From Nitrospirales bacterium (GTDB lineage: Bacteria > Nitrospirota > Nitrospiria > Nitrospirales > NS-4), in NCBI GenBank assembly GCA_036505795.1, contig DASXSU010000095.1:18242-82241 (forward strand): a DNA stretch of 64,000 nt, in the 5' to 3' direction. The notes under the pieces were generated by a model. It worked only from the letters and a program-made list of their open reading frames with translations, had not been told where the DNA came from and did not search any database. The position numbers and the translations under genes were made by a program. This document shows positions 1,466 through 45,626 of the stretch, piece after piece. Each line of letters opens with the position of its first letter. Within the stretch, counting starts at the first letter, position 1.

Positions 1466-1468
1466 GAC

Positions 1469-2290: not shown

Positions 2291-2333
2291 CTTGATGGAT
2301 GAGACGCTCTCGACCGCGTGATCTGTGGTTCCG

Positions 2334-4345: not shown

Positions 4346-4379
4346 ATGACGTTTATCTGTTACGCGCGATAGTCTACTG

Positions 4380-12980: not shown

Positions 12981-13200
12981 GTACGCGATAGCTTCCCTAC
13001 ATAGTAGGGCTCAGAGTGGCAGGATTCAGGGCAGATCGTGGCTGCAATTGGATTACATGGAAGCGATATCAAGCCTATCAAGTGGCAATAGTAACGCGAA
13101 GGGCCTCCGAGGTAAAGTCCGATTGCCAGATATTCCGTGTTGCAGTCGTGGAGAGGGCAAGCGTTCGTTCTAAAGCTCAGCCCTCTCCGACGACCTCAAG

Positions 13201-14481: not shown

Positions 14482-14938
14482 GGCGTACCTCTTTTCCTGG
14501 TCTGAATGCTCCCAACAAAAAGGAGACTATGGGAATGGGTAAAGTGCGTTCTTAGAAAGTTTCCCCAGAACGACCGAGAAAACGCTCGGGGGATGCGCAG
14601 GTACCGAAGCATAGTCTCTGAGGAATCCCTTTGCAACGTAAATTCGTAGGCAAAGGCTCTTAAAAGAAAAGTAAAAGAGGTAATTACCAACGAAGGAGGA
14701 ACACAGGATGCACTTTGATGACCCTCCGCCATGAGAAGCAATTTCGTGTCAGCTACGTCCTGAGTACGTAGCCGTTGTCGGTCCTCGGAGCGCATAAGGG
14801 TAATCGCTCGCTAACAGAATACCGTAGAGCCTAGCACCGTACGTAAGACTTTCGCAAGACCCCCTGCACCACAAGTTCTAAAGTAGTATCAGTAAGGATA
14901 CACGCACCCCAACCAGTGGTGTCCTCAATTCCATACAG

Positions 14939-26875: not shown

Positions 26876-27484
26876 GTGCCCACCACGGAAACTTTCTCGG
26901 AAGCGCGTAGCGTCGTTGCAACCCGTGTCGGTTCCGGTTTTCTCATGCTGTCTTCCTCGATTCAACTGCTTCATTGGGACCACCAGGCACAAGAACTTTG
27001 CCGGAGGATAAGCGGGATCAGCGGGGGCTCCCGTGCCCACATCCTGCCATTATGTGTTCAGGATTTCGCGCGCGAAATTGTGACGCTGATGGAAATCCGC
27101 AGCAACCCGAAGGATTGGGAACAGTTTCAACTTCGCCAGGTGATCAAGAGCGAACAGGACTCTATCTTTCTCTCGGGTATTGGACTGCCGGAACTTGGAG
27201 GGCTTGACGATTCGCGGGTGCTCATCATTCTCGAACAGATTGCGCCGCGCCAAAACTTCACCCTCGAGAAGGTCAAGGAACGATTTCATTTCACCGATCG
27301 CGAGACTGAAGTCATTGAACATCTTCTAAAAGGCTGGACGAATAAGGAAATCGCCAACGCGATCGACATCAGCCAGCTGACGGTCAAGGAGCATATCAAG
27401 CACATCATGGATAAGACCCGGACCTCTACCCGCACGGGTATCCTTGTGCAGATCCTGCAAGGATGCGCTCCGCCTTCTCAATAG
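26876..27484 (+). CDS. LuxR/GerE-family transcriptional regulator with an unknown N-terminal domain
   Basis: 202 aa. The C-terminal HTH is TDRETEVIEHLLKGWTNKEIANAIDISQLTVKEHIKHIMDKT. Confidence 0.8.
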   Translation: MPTTETFSEARSVVATRVGSGFLMLSSSIQLLHWDHQAQELCRRISGISGGSRAHILPLCVQDFAREIVTLMEIRSNPKDWEQFQLRQVIKSEQDSIFLSGIGLPELGGLDDSRVLIILEQIAPRQNFTLEKVKERFHFTDRETEVIEHLLKGWTNKEIANAIDISQLTVKEHIKHIMDKTRTSTRTGILVQILQGCAPPSQ

Positions 27485-30400
27485 GAATCGCAACGCCTCC
27501 TCGAAATAGTATCGGCGTGCCTGCGACTGCCGGGACTCGCGGCCCCGGCGTCACAATTCCCGCGAGGTTTAACGGGTCTGCCGCCGAGACCGTTATTTCA
27601 TGAGAAACATCGTCCGGCTCTCGACGCACGCTTCGCAAAGCCTCGATGGCTTCCGGAAGGCCGAACTGCTCTCCGGTAAATCCTGCGACGAAGCGGCCGC
27701 CGCGAATTTCTCCGCGTAGCTCCAGCCGTCGATATTGAACCAGCAGGTCGCGCCAAGGAGGCGCGCAGGATTCGCGACCCAAGAGATCCCTGAATACGAC
27801 TCCATACCGGCGCAGGAGCTGGCGGGCGATCCGCTCGACGTACTCGGGAGAGCCTGACTGTAGCCGCTCAATCCCGAAGGATTCCGGCTTAAGAAGCGCC
27901 CATCGCCCCATACTATGTCGGGGGCGCCGGGCACGCTCTCTGCCTTCGGCCCGGCGACGGCGTGGATCGATGAGGGCCCTCAAGCTGTCGAAGCCGTCTG
28001 CTGTCACGCGACCTGCGCTCACTAACTCCCAGAGTCCTTGCTCCACTTCAGCGGGCAGGTGCCCGGTCCCTCTGACAAGGTCCGTGAAAAAGCTCGCGCC
28101 CCGATCTATCAAATACCGATACAGATTCTGCGCCAACGAGCTTAGCGGAGGCGGCACGATCTCCCGGCTCAGCAGCCAGTCGGCGTCGTCGAGCGGAAAA
28201 AGACCGATTGGCGCAGCACTGGTCAGATTCATGAGTTTCTCGGTCGGGGCGTTGAAGCGGCCCCACCCTACGACGCCGCTCAAACAGAGACGATCCAACA
28301 TTTCCGGTTTGTAGTTTACGACGCGTTTCGCTAGCAGATGGCGCTCCCAGGCTGGCCCCGCCGCCTCAAACCCTGAAAGTTGGCGGATCATCTCAAGGAG
28401 GCCGGCCTCCCCGTGCAGCTGAGAACCGGCGGCCACGTGCTGCCATCGAAACAAAAACCGCAGGAAGTCCGCCGCCGTGACCGGCTCGATCTCTCGGCGC
28501 AGAGCCGCCGTAGTCAGGCGATGAATGCGAGCCAGAAGGCGTCGATCGCACCATTCCTCGACTTCCGCCGGATGGCTCCGTTCGATAAGTTCTTTCATCA
28601 GAGCGGGCGCAGAGAATTGGCCGCGTAGCACCTGCCCAGCCGCTTCCAATCGGAGAAGCGCTCCGGAAATCTCATGGGGCGCAAGATGAAGCCTTCTGGC
28701 CAAACCCGCTGCGGTAGTAGGACCAATAATTGCCATCCACCCTTGCACCACGGCAGTGACCGCCTCGTCGGCGCCAGGGGTGTCCTCAACCGCAACCGAC
28801 GATTCAAGAGCCCTCGGTCCCTTCGTGGAGGCGAGGATCGCATGAGCGAAGTCCCTTCGCTCTGTGGCCACCCAAATCGAAACCATCGCGTTTCCATACG
28901 TGTCAGAAATGCTCAGAATACTTGCGCGCCCCGTCTCAGATAACGCAGGCAGATGCGCGGCCCAAGCATCCGGCACCTGTTCCGCCGGTACCCACACTAA
29001 AGTCAGCAGTGCATCATGAAGTTCATCGGGATCACGGACGGCCGGCCACGCTTCCTCTACGACTTGCAGAATTGCCGCAGCGTCCAAACCGCCTAATCGC
29101 GCCGTGAGATCGCTCGGCAAAGTACGGCGCATTTGCACAGCGCGTGTCCGCCGCTCCTCCAAGGGAGCGTCATCCAAGAACGCATAGGGATTCGCGTTGA
29201 GAATCTCGTGCCCGAAGGCCGATGGAACGGGCGTCTCCGCCGTGAGACACCGGATCTGGCCGCCCTCGATGCGCTGAAGAACCCCGACGAGGCCTTCTAA
29301 ATCCAGTGCCTCCGTCAAACAGTCATGCAGCGTTTCCCGTACCAACGGGTGATCGGGAAGCTCACACTCGATGTGAGGATTATCCGGACACGCTGTGGCG
29401 TTTGGAAATACCGCGGTCAACAAATCCTCGGCCCGCATGCGCTGGATTTGGGGCGGGACGCGTCGTCCATTGCTGAATCGCAGGAGGGCCAACGCACGAG
29501 ACGCGTTCCAACGCCACCGCGTGGTGAACATCGGGGATGCCACCACCGCTTTCACCAATACCTCTTCGACACTCGCCGGTTTGAGGAAATCGAAGACCGA
29601 GGCCAGCGGAAAACTGTGCCGCTCTCCGAGCGAGATCACAAGACCTTCGTCCGTCGCGGCCGCTTGCAATTCGAGATCGAATGCAGTGCAAAACCGCTTG
29701 CGCAAGGCAAGTCCCCAGGCGCGGTTGAGCCGCCCTCCGAACGGGGCGTGCAAGACGAGTTGCATGCCGCCGCTTTCGTCGAAGAACCTCTCCGCGATGA
29801 TCGTATCCTGGGTCGGCACCGCCCCCAGTACCTTGCGTCCCTCCTCGACATACTCCAACGCCTGCTCGGCTCCCCGCCGGTCCAGCCCGCACTGCGCCTC
29901 CAACCAGCTCACCCCGGCTTCTGGAAGAGTCTGTTCCGTTCCGGAGTCCCAAAATCCGCCGAGCTGTTCCCGAATGTGCGCGACCTCGGCCGATAGCTCA
30001 GATGTTCTGGCAGGCGCCTCCCCACGCCAGAATGGGATTGTCGGCGGGGCTCCCTGCGCATCCTCCACCCTGACGGTACCGGTCTCAACGCCACGGATGC
30101 GCCAGGAGGCGTTCCCAAGCAACATGATGTCCCCGGCTAAACTCTCTACCGCGAAATCTTCATCGACAGACCCGACAACCAGTCCGCCAGGCTCGGCAAC
30201 AACCGCATAGTTCGCCGAGTCCGGAATCGCGCCCCCGGACGTCAGCGCAGCGAGACGAGCACCGCGCCGCCCTCGCAGCCGGTGTTGGACGCGATCATGA
30301 TGGAGGAAGGCCCCTCTGCGTCCCTGAGAAGTCGCGAAACCTTCGCTCAGCATTGTCACCACGGCATCGAAATCCACCCGCTGGAGCATGCGGTATGGAT

Positions 30401-31703
30401 AGGCTCCGCGGCACAGCTCAAACAGCGCATCTTCCCGCCACTCTTGCGTAGCGGCAGACGCCACGATCTGTTGCGCAAGGATATCCAAGGGCGCTAAAGG
30501 AATCGCGAGCCGGTCCAGAATGCCGTCACGGATAGCCTTCACCACGGCCGCGCACTCGATCAGATCATCCCGGGTGACCGGAAACAGTCTTCCCTTGGGC
30601 AGGGCGCCGACCCAGTGACCGGACCGGCCGATACGCTGTAGACCGATGGCGATAGCTCGAGGCGACCCTACCTGGCAGACCAGCTCTACACTGCCGATGT
30701 CGATCCCCAGCTCGAGCGAGGCCGTCGCAACGATCACCCGGATGTCCCCGCGTTTGAGCCGGTCTTCGGCGGACAATCGGAGACGCCGTGAGAGGCTGCC
30801 ATGATGCGCCGCCACTTGGTCGTCGCCTAAGCGCTCGGCCAAATGATGAGACACCCGCTCCGCGAGCCGCCGAGTATTGACAAAGACCAGGGTCGTGCGA
30901 TGCGCCTGAGCGAGCTCGGCCAGCCGATCGTAGATATCCTTCCAGATGGCGTTTGTCGCAACGCTTCCGAGCTCATCCTTGGGAACTTCGACCCCGAGAT
31001 CCATCGGCCGGCGATGCCCCATGTCGATCACACGGCAAGGTTTCCCGACGCCGCCGACGAGAAAGGCCGCGATGTCGACAATGGGTTCCTGGGTCGCCGA
31101 GAGACCGATCCGGGTCGGTTTGGTCGCAGTCAGCGCACCCAGCCGCTCAAGAGAGAGGGCGAGATGGGCGCCGCGTTTATTGCCTGCCACCGCGTGTATC
31201 TCATCCACAATGACCGTCTTGACGTCTCGGAGGAGGTCGCGGCTTTTTTCGGCGGTCAGCAAGAGAAACAAGGATTCCGGAGTTGTGACGAGAATATGCG
31301 GCGGCCGCATCAGCATCCGTCGTCGGTTCCAGGCCGGAGTGTCTCCGGTTCGAACTTCCACCCGCAACTCAGGCGTCAACAGTCCCGCACTGAAGGCTCT
31401 TTCCCCGATTTCTGCCAGCGGTTGTTGCAGATTCTTTTGCACGTCGTTGCTCAGCGCTTTGAGGGGAGACACGTAGAGCACCTGAGTCCGGTCTTCTAAT
31501 TCTCCTGCAAGCGCTTGTTTGAACAGATCGTCAATACAGGTCAGAAACGCGGCTAAAGTCTTGCCTGAGCCGGTCGGCGCGGCAATCAAGGTGTCCTCCC
31601 TCGAGACAATCGCCGGCCAGCTTTTGAGCTGGACATTGGTTGGCTCGATAAAGCGTCCACGAAACCAGTCGGCGACCACGGGATGAAAAAGTGAAAGAGA
31701 CAT
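27426..31703 (-). CDS. lhr: Lhr-type large ATP-dependent helicase
   Basis: 1425 aa. Walker A is APTGSGKT, the DExH box is IVDEIHA, and motif VI is QRIGRSGH. The DEAD/H-associated region and the long C-terminal domain are typical of full-length Lhr. Confidence 0.9.
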   Translation of the reverse strand: MSLSLFHPVVADWFRGRFIEPTNVQLKSWPAIVSREDTLIAAPTGSGKTLAAFLTCIDDLFKQALAGELEDRTQVLYVSPLKALSNDVQKNLQQPLAEIGERAFSAGLLTPELRVEVRTGDTPAWNRRRMLMRPPHILVTTPESLFLLLTAEKSRDLLRDVKTVIVDEIHAVAGNKRGAHLALSLERLGALTATKPTRIGLSATQEPIVDIAAFLVGGVGKPCRVIDMGHRRPMDLGVEVPKDELGSVATNAIWKDIYDRLAELAQAHRTTLVFVNTRRLAERVSHHLAERLGDDQVAAHHGSLSRRLRLSAEDRLKRGDIRVIVATASLELGIDIGSVELVCQVGSPRAIAIGLQRIGRSGHWVGALPKGRLFPVTRDDLIECAAVVKAIRDGILDRLAIPLAPLDILAQQIVASAATQEWREDALFELCRGAYPYRMLQRVDFDAVVTMLSEGFATSQGRRGAFLHHDRVQHRLRGRRGARLAALTSGGAIPDSANYAVVAEPGGLVVGSVDEDFAVESLAGDIMLLGNASWRIRGVETGTVRVEDAQGAPPTIPFWRGEAPARTSELSAEVAHIREQLGGFWDSGTEQTLPEAGVSWLEAQCGLDRRGAEQALEYVEEGRKVLGAVPTQDTIIAERFFDESGGMQLVLHAPFGGRLNRAWGLALRKRFCTAFDLELQAAATDEGLVISLGERHSFPLASVFDFLKPASVEEVLVKAVVASPMFTTRWRWNASRALALLRFSNGRRVPPQIQRMRAEDLLTAVFPNATACPDNPHIECELPDHPLVRETLHDCLTEALDLEGLVGVLQRIEGGQIRCLTAETPVPSAFGHEILNANPYAFLDDAPLEERRTRAVQMRRTLPSDLTARLGGLDAAAILQVVEEAWPAVRDPDELHDALLTLVWVPAEQVPDAWAAHLPALSETGRASILSISDTYGNAMVSIWVATERRDFAHAILASTKGPRALESSVAVEDTPGADEAVTAVVQGWMAIIGPTTAAGLARRLHLAPHEISGALLRLEAAGQVLRGQFSAPALMKELIERSHPAEVEEWCDRRLLARIHRLTTAALRREIEPVTAADFLRFLFRWQHVAAGSQLHGEAGLLEMIRQLSGFEAAGPAWERHLLAKRVVNYKPEMLDRLCLSGVVGWGRFNAPTEKLMNLTSAAPIGLFPLDDADWLLSREIVPPPLSSLAQNLYRYLIDRGASFFTDLVRGTGHLPAEVEQGLWELVSAGRVTADGFDSLRALIDPRRRRAEGRERARRPRHSMGRWALLKPESFGIERLQSGSPEYVERIARQLLRRYGVVFRDLLGRESCAPPWRDLLVQYRRLELRGEIRGGRFVAGFTGEQFGLPEAIEALRSVRREPDDVSHEITVSAADPLNLAGIVTPGPRVPAVAGTPILFRGGVAIPIEKAERILAGSAQGYPCG

Positions 31704-35904: not shown

Positions 35905-35980
35905 TGGAGGCGCCGAGCGGGGTCGAACCGCTGCATCGCAGTTTTGCAGACTGCTCCCTTAACCACTTGGGTACGGCGCC
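35905..35980 (-). tRNA. tRNA-Cys: tRNA-Cys (anticodon GCA), CCA encoded
   Basis: The reverse complement reads GGCGCCGTACCCAAGTGGTTAAGGGAGCAGTCTGCAAAACTGCGATGCAGCGGTTCGACCCCGCTCGGCGCCTCCA. The acceptor stem is GGCGCCG/CGGCGCC and the anticodon stem is GCAGT/ACTGC with loop CTGCAAA. The T arm is AGCGG-TTCGACC-CCGCT, and the discriminator is U followed by CCA. Confidence 0.93.
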
Positions 35981-36040: not shown

Positions 36041-37216
36041 TTACAACTTGAGCATGCGAACTTCCTTATTTTTCGAGTTTCCTGCGTCCGAGATCGACTC
36101 TGTAGCCAGCTCGCCGTTGACGCTGCCGTTGGCATCACCGTAAAGATCAGCTTCCTTTTCTTTCGCCATGATTTCGATTTCAGCGAGTAGGGTGTCCAAC
36201 AACTCTTCCGATTTGACTTTCCTAACGAGCTTGCCTGCTTTGAAGAGAATTCCGTGGCCATCTCCGCCCGCAATACCGATATCGGCCTCCTTGCCCTCAC
36301 CGATGCCGTTCACGACGCAGCCGAGGACCGAGACATTCAGCGGCACGCGGATATGTCCCAGCCGCTTCTCAAGTTCGTTGGCCAGCTTCACCACGTCGAT
36401 CTCCACCCGGCCGCATGTCGGACAGGCGATGACATTGACGCCGCGATGACGAAGTTCAAGGGATTTCAGTATTTCAAAGCCGACTTTCACCTCTTCGACA
36501 GGATCGGCAGCGAGGGAGACACGAATGGTATCACCGATGCCGCCCGCCAGGAGCAAGCCGATGCCTATCGATGACTTGATGGAACCGGTCAAGAGCGTCC
36601 CCGCTTCGGTAATCCCCAAATGCAAGGGGTAATCGGACTGCAACGAAAACAGCCGGTAGGCGTCCACAGCCAGATGTACATCGGAGGCCTTCAATGAGAC
36701 CTTCATATCGGTGAACCCGATGTCCTCGAGGGCGTGGACGGCGTTCAGGGCGGATTCACACAAGGCTTCGGCGGTGGGATACCCGTATTTGGCGAGTAAT
36801 TCCCGTTCGAGCGAGCCGCCGTTGACCCCAATGCGCAGAGGAATGTTGCGGTCACGGACCGCCTTCACAACCTCCTCCACCTTCCACCAAGCGCCGATGT
36901 TGCCGGGATTGATCCGGACGCAATCGACGACCTGCGCCGCCTTGAGCGCCAGGCGGTGATCAAAATGAATATCGGCGATCAGCGGGATCGTGACTTGAGA
37001 TTTGATCGCCCGTAAGGCGGCGGCCGCCTCCGGCGTATTCACCGTCACCCTGACAATCTCGCATCCGACTTGCTCTAGTTCGTGGATCTGGGCGACCGTG
37101 GCGGTCACATCGGCGGTGTCCGGGGTGGTCATGGATTGAACGACTATCGGCGCCCCTCCACCAATCGGCACCCGCCCGACACGAATCTGTTTGGTTTTGC
37201 GTCGTGTAATAAACAT
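36041..37216 (-). CDS. ispG: 4-hydroxy-3-methylbut-2-en-1-yl diphosphate synthase (IspG/GcpE)
   Basis: The ATG at 37216 (MFITRRKTKQIRVGRVPIGGGAPIVVQSMT) is the canonical IspG N-terminus. RVTVNT, RINPGNIG and the Cys ligands (IACPTCGR, VLGCVVNGIGE) are present. The C-terminal tail is about 45 aa longer than usual. Confidence 0.92.
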   Translation of the reverse strand: MFITRRKTKQIRVGRVPIGGGAPIVVQSMTTPDTADVTATVAQIHELEQVGCEIVRVTVNTPEAAAALRAIKSQVTIPLIADIHFDHRLALKAAQVVDCVRINPGNIGAWWKVEEVVKAVRDRNIPLRIGVNGGSLERELLAKYGYPTAEALCESALNAVHALEDIGFTDMKVSLKASDVHLAVDAYRLFSLQSDYPLHLGITEAGTLLTGSIKSSIGIGLLLAGGIGDTIRVSLAADPVEEVKVGFEILKSLELRHRGVNVIACPTCGRVEIDVVKLANELEKRLGHIRVPLNVSVLGCVVNGIGEGKEADIGIAGGDGHGILFKAGKLVRKVKSEELLDTLLAEIEIMAKEKEADLYGDANGSVNGELATESISDAGNSKNKEVRMLKL

Positions 37217-37309
37217 GGTTACGGTACGGCTTTCACAAGTCCTTGGCGACCCGTAGAACTCCTGAATTATAAACGTGTTTTTGGCTGCTGTCAAACAGTG
37301 CGACAGATA

Positions 37310-38395
37310 TCACAACCGATCCAACCGGTAGGTAATGACCGTCGCCAGGGTGAAATCGGGCGCCGAGTCACGGGTAAAATCAAGGTTCTCAATTCCATAG
37401 AATTGCCATAGGAGCCTTGGCGTGAACCGATACCCGAATACCAGCACGCCCTCGGTGATGGCGTTATCGAGTAATTTCATGCCGGTATGGTGAAATGGGG
37501 ACTGATAATAATCGAACTGCCCCGTAATCGAGAACTTCGGGGTGATGACGAACTCTACGCCGGTGATCGAGGTCATATAGGCCCGCAGTCCAAATCCAAG
37601 ATAGTGACCGATCGGAAAGATCTCATTCACATTCTGGTACAAGACCACATGCCCCAGGAAGGCCTTTTGCGCGGCGAGCCCGAAACCGAGATCTACCAAG
37701 CCGGTTCCAAATGCTCGGCTTTGGTCCCCGGTCGGGATCTTGACAGCCATGCGAAGCGCGATGCCTGGAAGATATTTTTTCTCAGGAATCACGAGCGCCT
37801 TGGACGAGAGGACCGTATCGGTCAGACCGTAAGCGCCATTGGTTCCCTGGAGCACAGTCTGGCCGTTGCGTGAAAGCCTATAGGCAAAGCCGGCATGGTT
37901 GAGATTGACACGAAGCGGCGCCGGCCTATTGACAAGATGCTCGACGGCCGTCACCAGACCATCGAGTCCGCCCGAGTTGTTATACAGCGAGGCGATCTCG
38001 ATGCCGACCTCGGTATTATGCAGAAGTCCGTAGCGAAGATCGATTGACGACCGAAGTTGATTGAGCTTGAGGACGGCGCTCGCCGTCGGAGTCGTCTCTT
38101 GGAGAATGGTGCTGCTTTCGGCGACATGGAGTCGCATCGCAAATCGTCCCTTGGCCACAGGATGAATCGATTCTCCGGGTATCTGCAACGACAGTCCCTG
38201 AATCGGCTGGAAATCTCGGACAGGCGCAAGGCCTTGTCCTATGTATGATTCCTGAGCCCGGATGCCAGGGGGTGTTGCCACAAGAAGGAAAACGAAGAGC
38301 GCTGCCGCTGGAAAAAATGGGGTCAGAGTCGACTTATTCACGACTCGCGGAATCCTAAAATCAATAAGTCGACTCTGACCCCAATTGGGGGCCAT
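37310..38395 (-). CDS. putative outer-membrane protein (DUF3187-like)
   Basis: The ATG at 38395 overlaps the upstream stop (TGATG). It has a hydrophobic signal region (AAALFVFLLVATPPGIRA) and beta-strand-rich sequence ending TLATVITYRLDRL. The family call is from memory and the start is uncertain. Confidence 0.5.
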   Translation of the reverse strand: MAPNWGQSRLIDFRIPRVVNKSTLTPFFPAAALFVFLLVATPPGIRAQESYIGQGLAPVRDFQPIQGLSLQIPGESIHPVAKGRFAMRLHVAESSTILQETTPTASAVLKLNQLRSSIDLRYGLLHNTEVGIEIASLYNNSGGLDGLVTAVEHLVNRPAPLRVNLNHAGFAYRLSRNGQTVLQGTNGAYGLTDTVLSSKALVIPEKKYLPGIALRMAVKIPTGDQSRAFGTGLVDLGFGLAAQKAFLGHVVLYQNVNEIFPIGHYLGFGLRAYMTSITGVEFVITPKFSITGQFDYYQSPFHHTGMKLLDNAITEGVLVFGYRFTPRLLWQFYGIENLDFTRDSAPDFTLATVITYRLDRL

Positions 38396-39612
38396 CAAAA
38401 TGGAAAATCCAGACCAGCGAAGACGGCATTGCCGTCTTTGCTGGTGGCAACATCCACCCGGCCGACCACATTCGGGCGCGCGATCGCTCGAAAGCCGATT
38501 CCAGGATTAAATTCGTACTGAGAGAACGCGCGGTACTGGAAGCTACTCAACACTTTACCAATATCAAGAAAGGGGGCGGTTTCGATCTCAGCGACGGTGC
38601 CAAAAAGCCGGAGGTGGAACAACTGGATACGCTCCTCAAAGTTAAAGACGATCGAATGGTCGTCGACAAAGCGACCGATCCCAAATCCTCGCAGGGAATT
38701 CTGGCCGCCCAACATGCTCCGCTCGAAAAATGGGATCTTCTCCCCCCCAAGGGTAGCCTCGAATTTACCACGGAACGCGAAGGTGTAGCGTTTGGTCTGG
38801 TCCGGGATCAGTTTTCGATATTCAATGCCATATTTGCTGAAGACCGTTGTGTGGTCGGACGTCACCGACTGCGCCAGTTCCGAGTACATTGTAAAGTAGG
38901 ATCCGATCGTCGGGCTGACGGCGTCGTCGCGTGTATCGCTCAAATATCCCAGCCTATTGCCAAAAATGGTGGCGCCCCCTGTCCCTTTGACGGTTGGAAA
39001 AACTGACTGAGTAAATGAAAGGCTTGGGATTCCGCCCGGCTGTAACTCCACATTGCGTACTCGTCCGGTGATGATGACCCGCTTTCCGGGACCGATATAC
39101 ATCCCGGCCGAAAGATAGCCATAGAGTTCCCGGTCCGTATAGTTCGTTTCACTCGACTGCGGAGCCTTCGGACCCAGCCCGAAAAACCGCGATGTCGCGT
39201 TCTTGTAAAAACCTCCGCCCAATTCGAGGCTGTAGCGGCCTTGCGAGAGATACAGGTTGCGATAATTCCCCACCAGTTTGCGCTCGATTCTCTCGGTGTA
39301 GGAACCTTGAAAAGTCATCTCCTCCCCACGGGTGGGATACTTGAAGAGATTAAGCGTCCCCCGCGAACCGAGAAACTCGTTGTGCACATACATGGGCGCG
39401 ATGATCTTATTGATCCTGCCATCGGCGTCATTAAAAATGAAGGGAGCGATAAGGCCGAGGTCGACCCCGTCGTTCTTCGAATTCGCAATTGCGGGGATGA
39501 GGAAGTAGTTCCAGTCTCGGGCGGCGGCGTGTCCCTTCGCAGGCAGGCTCAGCGCCAGCACGGAGGCAACCACCAATCCCAAGACGACGGAAACGCCGTC
39601 ACGGAATCTCAA
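38395..39612 (-). CDS. Omp85-family (bacterial surface antigen) outer-membrane barrel without recognisable POTRA repeats
   Basis: 405 aa with a signal peptide (VVLGLVVASVLALSLPAKGHA). LGGQNSLRGFGIGRF and the C-terminal VFAGLDFPF (terminal Phe) are Omp85 barrel hallmarks. Confidence 0.65.
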   Translation of the reverse strand: MRFRDGVSVVLGLVVASVLALSLPAKGHAAARDWNYFLIPAIANSKNDGVDLGLIAPFIFNDADGRINKIIAPMYVHNEFLGSRGTLNLFKYPTRGEEMTFQGSYTERIERKLVGNYRNLYLSQGRYSLELGGGFYKNATSRFFGLGPKAPQSSETNYTDRELYGYLSAGMYIGPGKRVIITGRVRNVELQPGGIPSLSFTQSVFPTVKGTGGATIFGNRLGYLSDTRDDAVSPTIGSYFTMYSELAQSVTSDHTTVFSKYGIEYRKLIPDQTKRYTFAFRGKFEATLGGEKIPFFERSMLGGQNSLRGFGIGRFVDDHSIVFNFEERIQLFHLRLFGTVAEIETAPFLDIGKVLSSFQYRAFSQYEFNPGIGFRAIARPNVVGRVDVATSKDGNAVFAGLDFPF

Positions 39613-39642
39613 TATGGCTATGATGCTCGTTCCGATACGATA

Positions 39643-40296
39643 TTAATCGGCTTTACGACGCTCAGGAGCCGCGCCGGGAGCCGAGATGACGTCCGCCTTG
39701 TCACGAATCGTCTTGCTCAACGACTCAAATGAATCCTTGCGAAGGATTCGCTTGAACTGCTCGCGATAATTGCTGACGAGCCCTGTCCCCTCAACCACGA
39801 CATCGTAGACGCGCCATTCGCCGCCGCCGTGTTCCATTTTGTAGTCGATAGGGACTTGGGATTTTCCTGTATCGATCTCGGTCCGTACCTCGGCATACTC
39901 GCCGTCCGTAAGCTCTTTGAGGTAGTGAATCTTCTCCCCGGAATAGTTTTCGATACGACCCAGGTATGAACTGGACAACAATGTGCGAAAGGAATCCACA
40001 AAGTCTTTGCGCTCCTCGGGAGTGCGCTTGGCCCATTCCGACCCGACCGTGCGCTTTGCCATTTCCTGAAAATTGAAGCGCTTGCCGATCACTGATTCAA
40101 GCTTCTTGCGCCGCTCTTCTTTCTTCTCCGGCACTTTTAAAGCCGGGTCTTCCAGCACGATGAGAACTTCATCGACGGACTGCTTGAGAGCCTCCGTAGG
40201 CGGACCTGCCGACGCGATACCTCCTGTCAGCGCTATCCACCCGGCCAAGAAACCGATCGCGAGCATCCCGCTCGTTACCCCGCTACACTTTGGCAT
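39643..40296 (-). CDS. mlaC: MlaC/Ttg2D-family periplasmic lipid-binding protein (HpnM-like)
   Basis: 217 aa with a signal peptide. FNFQEMAKRTVGSEWAKRTPEERKDFVDSFRTLLSSSYLGRIENYSGE is the typical MlaC/toluene-tolerance core. Confidence 0.8.
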   Translation of the reverse strand: MPKCSGVTSGMLAIGFLAGWIALTGGIASAGPPTEALKQSVDEVLIVLEDPALKVPEKKEERRKKLESVIGKRFNFQEMAKRTVGSEWAKRTPEERKDFVDSFRTLLSSSYLGRIENYSGEKIHYLKELTDGEYAEVRTEIDTGKSQVPIDYKMEHGGGEWRVYDVVVEGTGLVSNYREQFKRILRKDSFESLSKTIRDKADVISAPGAAPERRKAD

Positions 40297-40400
40297 TCCG
40301 CTCTCCTCTCTGACGAACTGAACATGATCGACCGGATCGCTCCTTCAACCTGTACAATGCTATTATACATCCTGCCGCAGCGAGATGCTTTCGCCTGGCG

Positions 40401-40895
40401 TCATTTTGCGGGCTTCCCGCTGCCATCCGGCTTTCCTTCGTCTTTTCCGCTGCTCCCGGCGCTTCCGTGAATGAATTCGCCGATGATGGCTTCTAAGTCT
40501 ACTCCTGATTCCGTATCGCGGATCTTACCTCCGGCCGTGAGTTCCTTGTCGGAGCCCCCAGGGGAAAGAGCGACGTACTTGTCGCCGATGAGCCCGCGGG
40601 TTTTGATCGACGCAATGGCATCCTGGTACACTTTGAGGCCAGGATTGACTGACAGGGTTACAAGCGCGCGCTCGCCGTCCAGAGCGATCCGTTTTACTTG
40701 GCCGACCTGAACGCCGGCGACCTCCACCGGGGCGCCCGTCTTCAACCCCGCGACCGAATCAAAGACCGCTTGGACGTGCCGCTGGTTTGTTCCGACGACT
40801 TCCAATTTCCCGAGTTTTACGGCCAGATAGGTCAAGGCCGCAATGCCGACAAGAACAAAGATCCCTACAGTGAGCTCTAGCTTGGTATCCTTCAC
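40401..40895 (-). CDS. mlaD: MCE-domain protein MlaD
   Basis: 164 aa with a GTG start overlapping the mlaF stop (GTGA). An N-terminal TM helix is followed by the MCE core (AVFDSVAGLKTGAPVEVAGVQVGQVKRI...IKTRGLIGDKYVAL). Confidence 0.85.
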   Translation of the reverse strand: MKDTKLELTVGIFVLVGIAALTYLAVKLGKLEVVGTNQRHVQAVFDSVAGLKTGAPVEVAGVQVGQVKRIALDGERALVTLSVNPGLKVYQDAIASIKTRGLIGDKYVALSPGGSDKELTAGGKIRDTESGVDLEAIIGEFIHGSAGSSGKDEGKPDGSGKPAK

Positions 40896-41731
40896 GGTCG
40901 TCGCGCCTCCTGAACCGCTGCTGCCTCTCTCCCCGCAGGGGAAAGGTTCGGATGACCGGCCTCTCTGCCGCCATTAATGAACTCTTGGATGGCTGGGTTC
41001 TGGGTGCGCACAAACTGATCGGAGGGCGCCATTTCGGCGATCTTGCCATCGAGAAGCATCGCCACATAATCCGAAATCTGAAAGATCTCGGGAATCTCAT
41101 GGCTCACCATAACTGCGGTAAATCTGTACCGCCGTTGCGTTTCCTGAATCAGGTCATGGATCGTGCGCGCGAGAAGAGGATCCAGGCCGGTGGTCGGCTC
41201 GTCGAACAGCATGATCTCCGGTCCCAGCACAAGTGCGCGGGCAAGCCCGGCACGTTTACGCATACCGCCGCTCAGTTCCGAAGGATACTTCTGTTCCATT
41301 CCTGTGAGCCCTACCTGGTCCAGCATCTCGAGGACTTTTTGTCGGATCTCTTCTTCTTTTAAAGTCGTTTTCTCACGAAGCGGGAACGCCACGTTTTCAA
41401 AAACCGAAAGCGAGTCAAAAAGCGCCGAGCCTTGAAACAGCATCGCGAACTTCTTGCGGATCTCATTGAGCTCGCGTTGACCCAGCAGAGTAATATCAGT
41501 GCCTTCCACCAGGACCTGACCGCGGTCCGGCCTGATTAAGCCGATGAGGTGTTTCAGTAACACGCTCTTGCCGCCTCCGCTGCGCCCAATGACGGTGGTG
41601 AGTTTTCCCCGCGGAATCTCCAGATTCAAGCCTGTGAGGACCGGATGCTCGCCAAAGCTTTTGTACACGTCCACGAGGCGAATAACCGGCGTCGTAGCGC
41701 CTGCAGCTTCTGTACTCAAGGGGGTCACCAT
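40892..41731 (-). CDS. mlaF: ABC transporter ATP-binding protein MlaF
   Basis: The ATG at 41731 is preferred because the track start at 41770 overlaps mlaE. Walker A is GRSGGGKS, the signature is LSGGMRKRAGLARAL, and Walker B is IMLFDEPTTGLD. Confidence 0.88.
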   Translation of the reverse strand: MVTPLSTEAAGATTPVIRLVDVYKSFGEHPVLTGLNLEIPRGKLTTVIGRSGGGKSVLLKHLIGLIRPDRGQVLVEGTDITLLGQRELNEIRKKFAMLFQGSALFDSLSVFENVAFPLREKTTLKEEEIRQKVLEMLDQVGLTGMEQKYPSELSGGMRKRAGLARALVLGPEIMLFDEPTTGLDPLLARTIHDLIQETQRRYRFTAVMVSHEIPEIFQISDYVAMLLDGKIAEMAPSDQFVRTQNPAIQEFINGGREAGHPNLSPAGREAAAVQEARRP

Positions 41732-41736
41732 TGCGG

Positions 41737-42510
41737 TCACAGCAGCACCGACGTAAGGAAATAATCCCAAATCAGCACCAAGACAGACGCCAGCACGACG
41801 GCCTCGGTCGTCGCCTTTCCAAGGCCCTCCGCGCTCATCCCGGTGTTGTAGCCTTTATAGGTACACACCCAGGTCACTATCAGTCCAAAACTTAACGCCT
41901 TGAGGATGCCACCGTACACATCCTTCCACTCTACGGCCGACTGCATGGAACTGGTATAGGCGCCGGAGCTTACCCCTAAGAGCTCGACGCCGACGAGGTG
42001 GCCGCCATAAATCCCGATCACATCAAAGATGGCCACCAACAGCGGCATGACCAGCACTCCAGCCAGCACCTTGGGCGCCACCAAATACTGCATAGGACTC
42101 ACCGCCATCGTATCTAAGGCGTCGATTTGCTCGGTAATGCGCATCAATCCGATCTCCGCCGTCATCGCCGATCCCGCGCGTCCGGTCACCATCAGTGCGG
42201 AAAGCACCGGGCCTAACTCTCGGATCATGCTCAGGGCGACCGCAGAGCCTAGAAGACCCTCTGCCCCAAACTTGCGCAGCGAATAGTATCCTTGTAGCCC
42301 CAACACCATGCCGGTGAACGCCCCAGTGAGCACGATGACGAACAATGATTTTACACCGATGAAATGCATTTGCTTGAGCAGTTGGAGAAACCTAAACGGG
42401 GGACGTACCAACCATGTGATGGTCTGCGCCAGGAACACCCCCATCCGGCCCATCTCGCGAATGGTCGACAGCGTAATGGCGCCCCAATGGGCGACGGTCG
42501 ATGTGATCAT
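41737..42510 (-). CDS. mlaE: ABC transporter permease MlaE
   Basis: The ATG at 42510 overlaps the hpnG stop (TGATG). QMHFIGVKSLFVIVLTGAFTGMVLGLQ and RELGPVLSALMVTGRAGSAMTAEIGLMRITEQIDAL are the MlaE family core. Confidence 0.88.
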   Translation of the reverse strand: MITSTVAHWGAITLSTIREMGRMGVFLAQTITWLVRPPFRFLQLLKQMHFIGVKSLFVIVLTGAFTGMVLGLQGYYSLRKFGAEGLLGSAVALSMIRELGPVLSALMVTGRAGSAMTAEIGLMRITEQIDALDTMAVSPMQYLVAPKVLAGVLVMPLLVAIFDVIGIYGGHLVGVELLGVSSGAYTSSMQSAVEWKDVYGGILKALSFGLIVTWVCTYKGYNTGMSAEGLGKATTEAVVLASVLVLIWDYFLTSVLL

Positions 42511-43304
42511 CAAGAAAGCGCCACAGAACAATCCGGTTGTGGAGGAAGCTGGCAAGACGGAAGAGCCATGGCAAACCAGGCAAAAAACCGTCTCAACGTA
42601 TCGTCGGCGTTGTCAGCATGACACTTCATGCGATACAAACCTCGGAGCAGGGACGGATGTGTCATCAGTTCCAGAATACCACGTAACGAGCCGGAGGCTG
42701 AGAGCCAAAGGTTAAAATCCATGGGTAAATCATCCCCTACTTTGTCGGAAACAGCCCGTACCGCCAGAAACGGCACCTTTTCCATGGCTGCGATGCGGGC
42801 GATTGTCGCGCTTTCCATATCCACGCCGATCGCGCCACTGGCGGCGGCCAGAGCCTGCTTCTCCGATGCCCGCCATACGATATTTGCGACAGTGATGATG
42901 GGCCCTTTTGTCCACCCCACGCCCGCCTCCCTGGCGGCAACGGCCGCTGCCGTCAGCAACGTCTCATCAACCGCAATGGCAGTGGACGACCGCTCCTGAA
43001 TCCAATCATGGATGCTCGTGCCAAGGATCAGCGCGCCTACACCTTCTGGTCCTAAGCCACCGATGTAGCCGGTCGAAATTATTGCATCTGGAGAAATGGC
43101 GAGTTGGACGGCTTCGGTGGCGAGCCGCGCGCGCTGATGCCCAATGCCGGTTTTGATCAGATGCACTTCGACATCCTTCAATCGTCCGATGGCATGGGCG
43201 AATCTTCCGACGCGATCATGGCGTATGCGGCCAAAGAACTCTAAGACCGATTGTGCCGGAGCAAGTTCGCGAGCAGTCGCAGCCAGGATTGCGACACGCC
43301 GCAT
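42510..43304 (-). CDS. hpnG: hopanoid-associated phosphorylase/nucleosidase (PNP_UDP_1 family, HpnG)
   Basis: 264 aa. VAILAATARE, IKTGIGHQRA and VDMESATIARIAAMEKVPFLAVRAVSD are the nucleoside phosphorylase fold. The start overlaps the shc stop (TAATG). Confidence 0.8.
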   Translation of the reverse strand: MRRVAILAATARELAPAQSVLEFFGRIRHDRVGRFAHAIGRLKDVEVHLIKTGIGHQRARLATEAVQLAISPDAIISTGYIGGLGPEGVGALILGTSIHDWIQERSSTAIAVDETLLTAAAVAAREAGVGWTKGPIITVANIVWRASEKQALAAASGAIGVDMESATIARIAAMEKVPFLAVRAVSDKVGDDLPMDFNLWLSASGSLRGILELMTHPSLLRGLYRMKCHADNADDTLRRFFAWFAMALPSCQLPPQPDCSVALS

Positions 43305-45466
43305 TACGGCACGAGCCGAAGCTGTCCGTGTTTACGGTTGTGTTCGAGGATCTCGTCCCCGCGCGCGCGCCCTTTGAGCTTGAGAGAGCGGTACATCGAG
43401 AGCGCCCAGAGGGGAAAGTAGTGGCTGTAGCCGTGGTAGCGTAAATAAAACACCCGGGGAAAGCCGGTCCCGGTGAAATGGCGCTCCGGCCAGTAACCCT
43501 GGGAATTCTGATGACGGAGAAGATAGTTGACGCCACGGACGACGCTGATCGTCTCGACTTCGCCTGCGCACAGCAATGCGAGGAGCGCCCAGGCGGTTTG
43601 TGACGGGGTACTCTCACCGTTGCCGTGTGCGTCTCGATCCGCGTACGAGAGACATGACTCATCCCAGCCGCCGTCATGGTTCTGTTTTGAAACGACCCAG
43701 GCCACGGCCTTTCGAATATACGGGGCATGCATGTCTTCACCGATGGCTTTCAGCCCTGCGAGCACGGACCACACACCATAGACGTAGTTGACCCCCCAAC
43801 GGCCGTACCACGAGCCATCCTTTTCCTGTTTCTCTTTCAAGAACCGGATTCCCCTGACGGCGGCCGGGTGCGACCGATCATAGCCCAGCGCGCCCAGCAT
43901 CTCGAGTTCTCGACCGGTCACGTCCGCGGTGCTTGGGTCCAATAACGCGCGGTGATCGGCAAACGGGATCTCATTAAAGAACATTCGATTATTGTCGCGG
44001 TCGTAGGCGCCCCATCCGCCGTCGCTTCCTTGCATCGGCAGGGTCCATCTCAGTCCGCGCTGCACCGAGGCATACAAGTCTTGTTGTGCCGGAATTTTAA
44101 TCTTGGAAAGCGCGATCAGGACGGCCGCGGTATCGTCATTGTCAGGATAGCATTCATTCTCAAACTGAAAATACCAGCCGCCCGGTTTGGAACGTGGGGA
44201 CGAGACTATCCAGTCGCCGACTTTTGTACATTGCCGCGAGAGAAGCCACTCTGCCGCCTGGACGAATGCGGGATGTTCCTGGGGAACGCCGCTCTCGATC
44301 AAGGCGCTGATGGTCAAGGGAGTATCCCAGAGGGGGGAAAAACAGGGCTGCAGGTGTAACGTGTCGCCGCGATCCACCTCCAAAGCTTCGATTTCACGAA
44401 AGGCCTTTTGCACCAACTCGTGATCATCCGGAAAGCCCAAGCAGCGCAACGCGAGAACCGAATTCGCCATGGCGGGATAAATGGCCCCCAGGCCTCCCTC
44501 ACCCTGCATCCGGGGCACCATCCAACGTGCCGCCTTCTCCACGCCCTTTTTCCGAACCCATTGCGGAACGAGCCGGTCATACACCCGTAACGCGCTATCG
44601 AGCGCAATAAAGACATTTCGCCATGTCAGCCAGCGGTCATCTTTTCGAAATGGAGGCTCCCGCCGAAAATCGACGAGTTCTCTGGGGATGCAATACAGCT
44701 CATCGATCCCCTGTTCCTTGGGAATTTTGCAGACCGGTTTGTTTGCAAAAATGATCAGCAGAGGCACCAGCACCGTGCGCGACCAGTAGGAAAGCGCATA
44801 CAGGTTGAAATAAAACCAGGGCGGTAATAAGGTGAGCTCGGCGGGCATCGTTGGAATTCCCCGCCAATCGTACTGATCAAATAAGGTCAGGGCAATCTTC
44901 GTGAAGACATTCGTGCCAACCACCCCGCCCTTCTCCAAGATCGTCGCCCGAGCTTTCTGCATAAACGGCTCATCTGCGGGAATGCCGGAAAGTTTCAGGG
45001 CGAAGTATGCCTTCACCGAGGCGCTGATTTCCGGGCTTCCTCCGTGATAGATGGGCCAGCCGCCTCCGGCAAGTTGGCTCTCAATCAGGTAGCGGACCGC
45101 CTTGGCCTCCTTTTCCGGCTCACGAAAGCCCATGAAGCGCCTCAGCATGATGTACTCGGCGGTCAACGTGGTGTCGACTTCTAATTCATGGATCCAGTAG
45201 CCGTCTTCCGACTGCTGCGCAAGGAGCCACTCTTGACCCCGGCGAATCGCCTCATGAAGCGTCCCAGAGTGGTGAGGCCCGTAGGTCGGTTCAAACCGAC
45301 GCGGTAAGCGAGGTAAGGATGCCCCGTCGCCGGAAAGGTTCAGATTACCACCGACTAAACTCAGCAAACGATTGGCATTGCGGCGCGCCCGCTGCTGTAC
45401 GCGCGGGGGTGCAGCAGACAGGATCCTCTCAGACCAGGTAGTCAACAGACCCAACAATCGCTTCAT
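43304..45466 (-). CDS. shc: squalene-hopene cyclase
   Basis: 720 aa. The catalytic DxDDTA is YPDNDDTAAVLIAL. Multiple QW repeats are present (QQSEDGYW, QLAGGGWP, QGSDGGWGAY, QEKDGSWYGRWG, QNHDGGWDE, QNSQGYWPE). The N-terminus is ~50 aa longer than typical, so the start is uncertain. Confidence 0.93.
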   Translation of the reverse strand: MKRLLGLLTTWSERILSAAPPRVQQRARRNANRLLSLVGGNLNLSGDGASLPRLPRRFEPTYGPHHSGTLHEAIRRGQEWLLAQQSEDGYWIHELEVDTTLTAEYIMLRRFMGFREPEKEAKAVRYLIESQLAGGGWPIYHGGSPEISASVKAYFALKLSGIPADEPFMQKARATILEKGGVVGTNVFTKIALTLFDQYDWRGIPTMPAELTLLPPWFYFNLYALSYWSRTVLVPLLIIFANKPVCKIPKEQGIDELYCIPRELVDFRREPPFRKDDRWLTWRNVFIALDSALRVYDRLVPQWVRKKGVEKAARWMVPRMQGEGGLGAIYPAMANSVLALRCLGFPDDHELVQKAFREIEALEVDRGDTLHLQPCFSPLWDTPLTISALIESGVPQEHPAFVQAAEWLLSRQCTKVGDWIVSSPRSKPGGWYFQFENECYPDNDDTAAVLIALSKIKIPAQQDLYASVQRGLRWTLPMQGSDGGWGAYDRDNNRMFFNEIPFADHRALLDPSTADVTGRELEMLGALGYDRSHPAAVRGIRFLKEKQEKDGSWYGRWGVNYVYGVWSVLAGLKAIGEDMHAPYIRKAVAWVVSKQNHDGGWDESCLSYADRDAHGNGESTPSQTAWALLALLCAGEVETISVVRGVNYLLRHQNSQGYWPERHFTGTGFPRVFYLRYHGYSHYFPLWALSMYRSLKLKGRARGDEILEHNRKHGQLRLVP

Positions 45467-45626
45467 AACGCCTTTCTGCCTCTACTATGATTGGTGTTAT
45501 CTGCCCCCTGGAGGGAGGGAGCCCCATTGAAGGCTATCGAAGCCGGAGTATACAGCAAAGCGTTGCCTAACTGTCAAGAGAAATCACGCTCATTATCAAT
45601 AGGTTACCAGTCAGCCACCACCACCC

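Follow-up and report, generated by a model that had tools for sequence, protein, structure and literature searches.

By which route do hopanoids travel to the outer membrane? So far the inner-membrane RND pump HpnN is the one component to have been characterised; HpnM, HpnS and HpnT are speculative components, proposed in 2025 for Proteobacteria only. The question is raised again by a string of genes in a 64,000-nucleotide (nt) stretch of DNA from a Nitrospirales bacterium (GenBank assembly GCA_036505795.1, contig DASXSU010000095.1, positions 18,242 to 82,241), hereafter the window, to which all coordinates refer unless they follow the number of another locus (L001 and so on). ORF (open reading frame) listing and profile searches, which underlie the gene calls, place nine co-directional genes on the minus strand in the order shc, hpnG, mlaE, mlaF, mlaD, mlaC-like, Omp85-like barrel, DUF3187 and ispG. 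This is the order given in the original prediction, which saw in the string a dedicated route for hopanoids with an unusual outer-membrane terminus. We propose to read the region as a hopanoid "supercluster" in its Nitrospirales form, in which synthesis genes (shc and hpnG, with dxs/ispG and hpnH nearby) are joined to an envelope trafficking module, and we give this reading about an even chance of being right. What is new here is the recognition of a POTRA-less Omp85 barrel subfamily as a conserved hopanoid-cluster gene which recruits Mla, HpnN, TatT-like and DUF3187 partners in modular fashion. The locus and its relatives thus contribute a well-defined outer-membrane candidate of wide conservation, another kind of energised module at the inner membrane (MlaFED) and a set of natural swap variants, with or without MlaFED, with DUF3187 or a TatT-like protein, and with or without HpnN. 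If the proposal is true, lipids would join proteins as known cargo of the Omp85 superfamily, Mla systems would be seen to handle a broader set of substrates, and light would be shed on how nitrifiers, an important source of bacteriohopanepolyols in sediments, come by their outer-membrane hopanoids.

The string opens with shc (43304-45466, 720 amino acids, aa), a squalene-hopene cyclase gene scoring 763 bits with TIGR01507 (cutoff 431) and encoding both the N- and the C-terminal SQHop_cyclase domain. The hpnG-like gene (42510-43304, 264 aa) encodes a nucleosidase/phosphorylase (PF01048, PNP_UDP_1, 82 bits) whose top NCBIfam model is HpnG TIGR03468 with 117 bits; this lies below the cutoff of 187, and the gene is counted as a member of the hopanoid cluster by position only, hpnG being found directly 3' of shc in all lineages examined. 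The inner-membrane module follows with mlaE, a permease gene (41737-42510, 257 aa from ATG 42510; PF02405 281 bits against a cutoff of 22.5, TIGR00056 270 bits against a cutoff of 212), mlaF, an ABC ATPase gene (40892-41731, 279 aa; ABC_tran 115 bits), and mlaD, encoding a short MCE protein of 164 aa (40401-40895; GTG start with GGAGG upstream; PF02470 79 bits). The mlaC-like gene (39643-40296; 217 aa, or 207 aa from ATG 40266) encodes a periplasmic lipid-binding protein (PF05494 162 bits, cutoff 26) with a Sec signal peptide ending in ...GGIASA; an exact look-up of this protein found no entry. After the two outer-membrane barrel genes described below comes ispG (36041-37216, 391 aa from ATG 37216; GcpE 493 bits, NF001540 502 bits), which encodes the hydroxymethylbutenyl diphosphate (HMBPP) synthase of the methylerythritol phosphate (MEP) pathway. 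A further gene of the hopanoid pathway, hpnH for adenosyl-hopene transferase (19294-20310, minus strand; TIGR03470 544 bits, cutoff 225), lies 16 kb away. By profile scores the window has Shc and HpnH above their cutoffs and the HpnG-like protein below. The string is flanked by smc upstream and by a tRNA-Cys gene downstream. An independent contig from the Joint Genome Institute (JGI), L090, is 99.98% identical to the window and has the identical gene arrangement; the JGI gene calls on it start mlaE, mlaF and mlaD where we do and likewise give 257 aa for MlaE and 391 aa for IspG.

Is this arrangement more than a peculiarity of one genome? We scanned genomes with the Omp85-like barrel, taking one genome per species, and examined the best 80 of 363 loci. 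The protein has more than 1500 database relatives, of which the best 120 are all from Nitrospirota, and 77 of the 80 loci, among them that of Candidatus Nitrospira defluvii, are labelled Nitrospirota, Nitrospirales or Nitrospira, the exceptions being one Nitrospinota-labelled metagenome-assembled genome and two "uncultured bacterium" records. When the window proteins were searched against these loci by tblastn, the order smc-shc-hpnG-mlaE-mlaF-mlaD-mlaC-omp85-(DUF3187)-...-ispG was recovered in essentially every locus that was long enough, down to 44% barrel identity, and the gene order of 36 further metagenome loci of Nitrospirales agreed. The synteny check suggested with the original prediction thus came out in its favour, essentially all of the 80 genome and 36 metagenome loci being collinear, and the embedding of mla, mlaC and barrel in a hopanoid/isoprenoid cluster is borne out by shc-hpnG upstream and, in relatives, dxs-ispG-hpnH downstream. 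It could be argued that vertical inheritance has simply preserved an accidental arrangement, as the best 80 genome matches belong to a single order and in most Nitrospirales loci smc keeps its place in line with the string. Because smc is collinear too, synteny within the order proves little by itself, and this weighs against our proposal. The flanks do vary, though; the locus L054 has dnaB, TPR (tetratricopeptide repeat), pilin and UDP-glucose dehydrogenase genes in place of smc. Furthermore, insertions, losses and replacements occur inside the string while the hpnG..barrel and mlaC-barrel adjacencies persist, and the barrel remains beside hpnG at 30-40% identity in organisms of 52%, 60% and 70-75% GC (guanine plus cytosine) content. 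We therefore consider synteny without function very improbable.

The result of greater weight concerns the barrel. The gene (38395-39612; 405 aa, or 395 aa from TTG 39582) encodes a protein of the Omp85 family (PF01103 57 bits, cutoff 24) with a signal peptide, a conserved LRGFG motif in loop 6 and a C-terminus reading ...GLDFPF. Its AlphaFold2 (AF2) model, made from a 54-sequence alignment, has a predicted local distance difference test score (pLDDT) of 77.9 and a predicted template-modelling score (pTM) of 0.74; from about residue 33 through to the C-terminus its structure is all beta. The best PDB matches found with Foldseek were BamA/TamA barrels (E=5e-10; query-normalised TM-score, TMq, 0.55-0.66). 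Residues L307, R308, G309 and G311 of loop 6 were invariant or nearly so in the 54 sequences, with the consensus LRGFGVGRF. Neither the profile searches nor the AF2 model revealed a POTRA domain, and the score with the BamA equivalog was 35 bits against a cutoff of 297. Since no POTRA match was found, the beta structure begins at about residue 33 and the BamA equivalog stays far under its cutoff, the protein belongs to the noNterm (POTRA-less) class of Omp85 proteins; a classification of the family is reportedly due to Heinz & Lithgow 2014. The subfamily is broad: 192 clusters at E<=1e-30 emerged when 1.8 billion cluster representatives were searched with a profile. Other noNterm proteins, e.g. 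the three paralogs of Leptospira (PMC11358297), share the 16-strand-type barrel, the loop-6 RGF motif and the lack of POTRA domains; unlike that class, which is without known function, the subfamily described here has a consistent hopanoid gene neighbourhood.

This neighbourhood reaches well beyond the Nitrospirales string. In clade B (L085, L086, L096 and L098; 52-54% GC) the order is hpnH-shc-hpnG-omp85-dxs-ispG with no mla genes. A Leptospirillum-type locus carries shc-hpnG-omp85, the last with a 4-nt overlap, followed by an hpnA-like gene, ispH, a B12-binding radical S-adenosylmethionine (radical-SAM) gene, a family 2 glycosyltransferase (GT2), EamA and carotenoid synthase genes, again without mla, and its barrel is about 35% identical to that of the window; a 214-aa ORF after this barrel was set aside, its translation appearing spurious. 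The gene content of this locus agrees with that of the published hopanoid cluster of L. ferriphilum (PMC12654047; PMC7231039). Those papers describe an "HpnCDEFGIJHGRP and BamA hopanoid system" and list the barrel only, as "Omp85" or "BamA" (PMC12654047; PMC7231039). The same barrel family thus stands directly after shc-hpnG in both systems, but mla is absent from the Leptospirillum locus, and the papers give no analysis of fold, missing POTRA, distribution or role of the barrel. In clade C (68-75% GC) we found either shc-hpnG-hpnL-like-omp85-hpnA, on contigs of 72-75% GC, or hpnH-hpnG-omp85-hpnA-hpnD, with HpnA at 483 bits (cutoff 368) and HpnD at 317 (cutoff 279). Clade D has omp85-ispH-hpnJ (722 bits, cutoff 578), then a TatT/BstC-like TPR gene, a radical-SAM gene and hpnI (377 bits, cutoff 310). 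Also, a barrel paralog of Nitrospira, 34-41% identical, ends a string of hpnI (338 bits, cutoff 310), hpnK (303, cutoff 233), EamA, aminotransferase, short-chain dehydrogenase/reductase (SDR) and LtaS-like sulfatase genes, which suggests a second hopanoid-related envelope module, perhaps for bacteriohopanetetrol (BHT)-glucosamine. At the paralog loci (L082 3072-11368, L084 4707-10997) the barrel has an N-terminal extension and measures 455 aa in L082 and 541 aa in L084; the string includes an EamA protein of 128 aa, a DegT aminotransferase and an LtaS-like sulfatase of 735 aa, and lies downstream of a sigma-54 two-component pair. In a neighbour-joining tree, which carries no support values and is descriptive only, the context classes formed separate clades, six of them linked to hopanoid genes; clade E and one singleton were not. 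Thus, across lineages, the POTRA-less Omp85 subfamily is a hopanoid-cluster gene in its own right.

What would such a barrel do? One answer, which we put forward tentatively and hold with less conviction than the supercluster itself, is that the subfamily serves as a dedicated outer-membrane receptor or insertase for hopanoids, with lipid as its cargo, being conserved beside hpnG/shc in at least six clades, from Nitrospirota up to organisms of 70-75% GC, and would be fed by a different module in each lineage: MlaFED-MlaC would serve in Nitrospirales, MlaFED in a high-GC lineage, and HpnN with a TatT/BstC-like protein in marine Nitrospirales. There are precedents for a beta-barrel at the outer-membrane end of an intermembrane lipid route. 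In TamA-TamB an Omp85 barrel anchors an AsmA-like lipid conduit. The long MlaD of Veillonella, with an outer-membrane barrel of its own, is a comparable case (PMC10665443); TamA, however, has POTRA domains and binds TamB, and in Veillonella the barrel is fused to MlaD, whereas the window has a short MlaD, a soluble MlaC and a barrel encoded by a separate gene.

The opposing answer is that the barrel does not handle lipids at all and either acts on proteins, in assembly or secretion, or is a structural protein requiring a hopanoid-rich membrane, its clustering with hopanoid genes reflecting co-regulation under stress. To our knowledge, all characterised Omp85 proteins handle polypeptides, and the loop-6 RGF motif and the BamA/TamA-like fold of this barrel are in keeping with such a role, as is the plain entry "BamA" in the Leptospirillum literature (PMC7231039). 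Clade E speaks for this answer also, and against ours: its barrels have no hopanoid neighbours. The clade is monophyletic, and its loci (L149 4697-11161, L157 6465-12593) set the barrel among sigma-54 two-component genes (a HAMP histidine kinase plus response regulator) and genes for an MsbA-like ABC exporter, an aldehyde dehydrogenase and a PMT_2/ArnT-like transferase; the clade may be tied to another envelope glycolipid. A protein-handling barrel would, on the other hand, lack the POTRA domain with which to receive its substrate, and no passenger or partner protein is conserved alongside it across lineages, the constant neighbours being only hpnG, shc, hpnA and ispH, while lipid carriers and transporters (MlaC, HpnN, TatT/BstC-like, DUF3187) have been recruited beside it repeatedly. 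We regard the protein-handling explanation as improbable.

A comparison of clade B with the Nitrospirales shows how the string of the window was assembled. The ancestral core is shc-hpnG with the POTRA-less barrel directly behind it, often then with dxs-ispG or hpnA/ispH. In Nitrospirales the four-gene module mlaE-mlaF-mlaD-mlaC was inserted at the very junction of hpnG and the barrel, and DUF3187 at that of the barrel and dxs; after the Omp85 barrel, either this second barrel or a TatT/BstC-like TPR protein was added. If the supercluster proposal holds, the MlaFED ABC/MCE complex would extract hopanoids from the inner membrane, the secreted MlaC-like (HpnM-like) protein would take them across the periplasm and deliver them to the Omp85-type barrel, possibly with the DUF3187 barrel helping or bypassing it, and the Omp85-type barrel would pass them laterally into the outer membrane. 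A hopanoid trafficking role of the string, inferred from gene content and order, is well supported by this context. The components of the inner-membrane side are those of E. coli MlaFEDB-MlaC-MlaA/OmpC, namely MlaE permease, a probable MlaF ATPase, a short MCE MlaD and a secreted carrier of the MlaC fold; the order E-F-D-C is that of proteobacterial operons, and the window proteins strongly resemble solved Mla proteins. Unlike the E. coli system, the string lacks MlaB (STAS) and MlaA, as had been noted, has a POTRA-less Omp85 gene after mlaC and is embedded among hopanoid genes. Among the approximately 40 of the 55 larger ORFs of the window that were scanned, we found neither MlaB/STAS nor MlaA, hpnN or a second mla set, and tblastn of the whole window gave no match to HpnN, HpnI or HpnK.

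It is on this inner-membrane side that our proposal meets its strongest competitor, namely that MlaFED-MlaC is a general system for glycerophospholipid asymmetry, parked in the hopanoid cluster or co-regulated with it, the barrel being a substitute for MlaA/OmpC or a separate hopanoid factor. Several observations weigh against our proposal here and in favour of this competitor. By sequence MlaE, MlaD and MlaF resemble ordinary Mla proteins for phospholipids and bear no hopanoid-specific mark: MlaD passes the MlaD equivalog cutoff (TIGR04430 147 bits, cutoff 135), and MlaE scores 216 bits with Pseudomonas MlaE and 212 with E. coli MlaE (PDB chains), in addition to 295 bits with NF033619 (cutoff 315). 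MlaF has MlaF PRK11831 as its top NCBIfam model with 219 bits (cutoff 441), and the position of its gene between mlaE and mlaD fits this assignment. The nearest solved chains to the MlaC-like protein are phospholipid-binding MlaCs of beta-proteobacteria, 2qgu and 8dte (Ralstonia, Neisseria; E=1e-16 to 1e-14). MlaEFD is an ancient general system (PMC10665443), and without another mla locus in Nitrospirales, of which the scanned ORFs of the window likewise showed none, the present one must serve phospholipid homeostasis too, or only that. It may be noted that the published Mla census contains no true Nitrospira genome (distribution table of Grasekamp et al.). Moreover, mlaEFD can disappear from the locus with the other genes left in place. 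It is absent between hpnG and mlaC in L034, L038, L054 and L057, where mlaC-omp85 remains beside shc-hpnG, and since L034 and L054 fall into different subclades, this loss from the locus has occurred more than once. An RND protein in L034 was considered as an HpnN substitute for MlaFED and rejected, as it scores 117 bits with HpnN (cutoff 752) and is a generic HAE3/MMPL protein.

A purely housekeeping Mla system would not, on the other hand, explain why the module was placed just at the boundary of hpnG and barrel, with junctions that overlap or nearly do so and are conserved across the order, nor why mlaC stays attached to the hopanoid-linked barrel where mlaEFD has gone. Against it stands also a 64-kb metagenome contig of 70% GC (L115), on which shc-mlaE-mlaF-mlaD are adjacent and co-directional (1034-4973, minus strand) and divergent from hpnH-hpnG-omp85-hpnA-hpnD, with no mlaC there. 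The Mla proteins of L115 are 49-56% identical to those of the window, and its MlaD is confirmed by Pfam. The shc-mla link of L115 is an independent one, from a clearly different lineage; that it is a single contig counts against giving it much weight. The shc of this contig is seemingly split over two frames, by a frameshift or an assembly error. Two further facts are unfavourable to our proposal: most hopanoid-linked barrel lineages have no adjoining mla, and in L041 a true HpnN coexists with MlaFED, so that the Mla module is not the sole or obligatory partner. Extra copies of MlaC beside hopanoid genes have already been reported in Proteobacteria (PMC12324291), which again argues against a purely general function. 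Taken together, we consider the housekeeping explanation unlikely, albeit the one most to be reckoned with. The original claim of a dedicated route accordingly stands as regards the hopanoid-cluster context and the non-canonical outer-membrane terminus of POTRA-less Omp85 and DUF3187, whereas MlaFED look canonical and the MlaC-like protein fails the HpnM cutoff.

In each Nitrospirales locus that was examined and of sufficient length, the gene for the MlaC-like carrier lies inside the string from shc to ispG. HpnM is its top-scoring NCBIfam model, yet the score of 87 bits with HpnM TIGR03481 is below the cutoff of 160, and orthologs reach 92-112 bits, which tells against our proposal. The E. 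coli-type MlaC equivalog PRK15117 gives 35 bits (cutoff 195). We rejected the ranking of HpnM as a sign of hopanoid specificity; the argument is weak because the MlaC model that competes with it is an enterobacterial equivalog of narrow scope, and ordinary MlaCs are the closest chains of known structure. An Mla-like route through HpnN-HpnM-HpnS (and HpnT) has been proposed for Proteobacteria (Lawrence et al., bioRxiv 2025, PMC12324291), in a paper in which Omp85, DUF3187 and MlaE/F/D go unmentioned. Like that route, the string has an MlaC-family carrier beside hopanoid genes, and in two relatives only, L041 and L066, a true HpnN is part of it. The differences lie at each step: the inner-membrane partner in the window is the MlaFED ABC/MCE complex rather than the RND pump HpnN, the carrier stays under the HpnM cutoff, and the outer-membrane candidate is the Omp85 barrel, with DUF3187, rather than the MlaA-like HpnS, no MlaA domain having been found in the scanned ORFs of the window and no HpnN by tblastn.

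The second outer-membrane protein, whose gene spans 37310-38395 as the longest ORF, belongs to DUF3187 (PF11383 43 bits, cutoff 24; 87 bits for the N. defluvii ortholog), and measures 343 aa from the likely start GTG 38341. Its AF2 model (pLDDT 83.2, pTM 0.77) matched FapF, the COG4313 channel 4rl8 and FadL/TodX in Foldseek (E=2e-10 to 2e-9; target-normalised TM-score, TMt, 0.63-0.70) at an identity of merely 9-14%, and the protein scores 18 bits with Pfam Phenol_MetA_deg (cutoff 22). The COG4313 channel, FadL and TodX are barrels which pass hydrophobic substrates; FapF is a secretion channel for amyloid subunits. The modelled folds of the Omp85-like and DUF3187 proteins would fit the handling of hydrophobic cargo, and the two outer-membrane proteins of the original prediction, one of them POTRA-less, are upheld by profiles, AF2 models and Foldseek alike.

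DUF3187 is dispensable, being absent in some loci and replaced in eight by a TatT/BstC-like TPR protein of 257 aa. This protein measures 247-257 aa (L041 11198-11971, L054 11231-12004, L117 11455-12198), and in clade D its gene stands between hpnJ and hpnI. Two loci, L041 and L066, have two additional genes inserted behind the TPR gene, a bona fide hpnN (834 bits, cutoff 752) and a B12 radical-SAM gene. These two (L041 12437-16859, L066 4472-8885), the second encoding a B12-binding radical-SAM/DUF4070 protein resembling HpnP/HpnR, lie between the TPR gene and dxs, alongside mlaEFD-mlaC. Possibly the TPR protein is to hopanoids what BstC is to the sterols it binds; the similarity is weak, with 30-31 bits against the NCBIfam BstC cutoff of 350 and BstC 7t1s (E=3e-4) as the best PDB match of the L117 protein. 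The BstABC sterol transporter of Methylococcus (PMC10942540; PMC11713862) is likewise encoded in a polycyclic triterpenoid cluster which brings its own envelope transport chain, and the Nitrospirales resemble it in the TPR gene of the eight loci and in HpnN, the closest relative of BstA, next to it in two of them. Unlike Methylococcus, the window has no BstA, BstB or BstC, and in its relatives the likeness to BstC is slight.

Are the genes of the string also expressed together? Reading of the sequence gave the overlaps TAATG at 43304 for shc/hpnG, TGATG at 42510 for hpnG/mlaE and GTGA at 40892-40895 for mlaF/mlaD, and a spacing of 5 nt between mlaE and mlaF, all four junctions being as previously described. 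Between mlaC and Omp85 the 30 nt formerly given hold for the longest ORF and become 60 nt with the JGI-called start, and the earlier junction list had left out the gap of 104 nt between mlaD and mlaC. The letters TGATG at 38395, formerly taken for an Omp85/DUF3187 overlap, are present and probably do not mark the true start of DUF3187. The alignment with 37 homologs favours GTG 38341, which is followed by a canonical signal peptide, MNKSTLTPFFPAAALFVFLLVATPPGIRA; as this start matches those of the homologs and carries such a peptide, GTG 38341 is the likely true start rather than 38395, and the overlap is therefore doubtful. Across the loci compared, with gaps taken from heuristic start calls, the hpnG>mlaE gap had a median of 3 nt, was at most 20 nt in 60 of 79 loci and was an overlap in 37 of the 79; the mlaC>omp85 gap had a median of 10 nt and was at most 20 nt in 74 of 103 loci; and mlaD>mlaC was the loosest junction. 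Tight junctions are ordinary in operons; their conservation exceeds chance. The genes from shc to DUF3187 probably form a single transcription unit.

Whether ispG belongs to that unit is a different matter. Of 40 DUF3187>dxs gaps in relatives, 39 contain a box of the form TTGACA-17-GAnAAT ahead of dxs, and a homologous box precedes ispG in the window (37294-37266, minus strand), here as the perfect sigma-70 consensus TTGACA-17-TATAAT matching at 12 of 12 positions. Given this conserved promoter-like box, ispG, or dxs-ispG in the relatives, is most likely a transcription unit of its own, which weakens the idea of co-expression with IspG; expression of ispG from the promoter of the string, as first proposed, is unlikely. 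At the other end, the 160-nt smc-shc spacer (45467-45626, minus strand) is the putative promoter region of the shc...DUF3187 unit, with TTGACA...TATACT at a 19-nt spacing read from the sequence; the promoter is only putative because no sigma-70 match is conserved in this spacer among relatives. An internal sigma-70 promoter in the mlaD-mlaC gap was considered and dropped, TGTATAAT being present in the window without conservation in relatives. Folding of the mlaD-mlaC spacer as RNA gave nothing out of the ordinary (z = -1.1), and a search of the spacers for regulatory RNA found none, tRNA-Cys being the sole Rfam match.

The downstream end of the string differs in the window from that of most relatives. 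In 70 of the 80 loci a dxs gene separates ispG from DUF3187 or from the barrel; it occurs nowhere in the window, and as the near-identical contig L090 has the same arrangement, this is not an assembly artefact. In the window spacer 37217-37309, compared with L001 2433-2523 and L005 12247-12374, the dxs promoter-like box now stands directly before ispG. L160 (84% barrel identity) has neither DUF3187 nor dxs. The closest long relative, L002 (77% barrel identity), lacks DUF3187 and has dxs as two overlapping ORFs of 173 and 479 aa (11349-13248), probably through an assembly frameshift error and not as a pseudogene. Furthermore, hpnH follows ispG at about 0.3-5 kb in 32 loci, as against the 16 kb of the window, which suggests an insertion or rearrangement in the lineage of the window. 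Between hpnH and ispG the window has genes for an Lhr-type helicase (27426-31703), for several sensor kinases and response regulators, for an ATP-grasp/peptidase pair and for a putative porin.

The string is bounded downstream by tRNA-Cys(GCA) (35905-35980, minus strand; ARAGORN, and Rfam with 60 bits), 60 nt past the ispG stop, and this tRNA gene has a promoter-like box of its own, TTGTCT-18-TATAAT, at 36019-35990. Elsewhere in the window, at 13201-17548 on the minus strand, a fusion of PilZ with an alpha/beta-hydrolase or acyltransferase and a methyltransferase (869 aa) adjoins a fusion of PilZ with a haem-oxygenase-like/TENA domain (426 aa); both are unusual architectures for receptors of cyclic diguanylate (c-di-GMP), and they lie beside a histidine kinase of seven-transmembrane (7TM)-GAF type (10050-12980).

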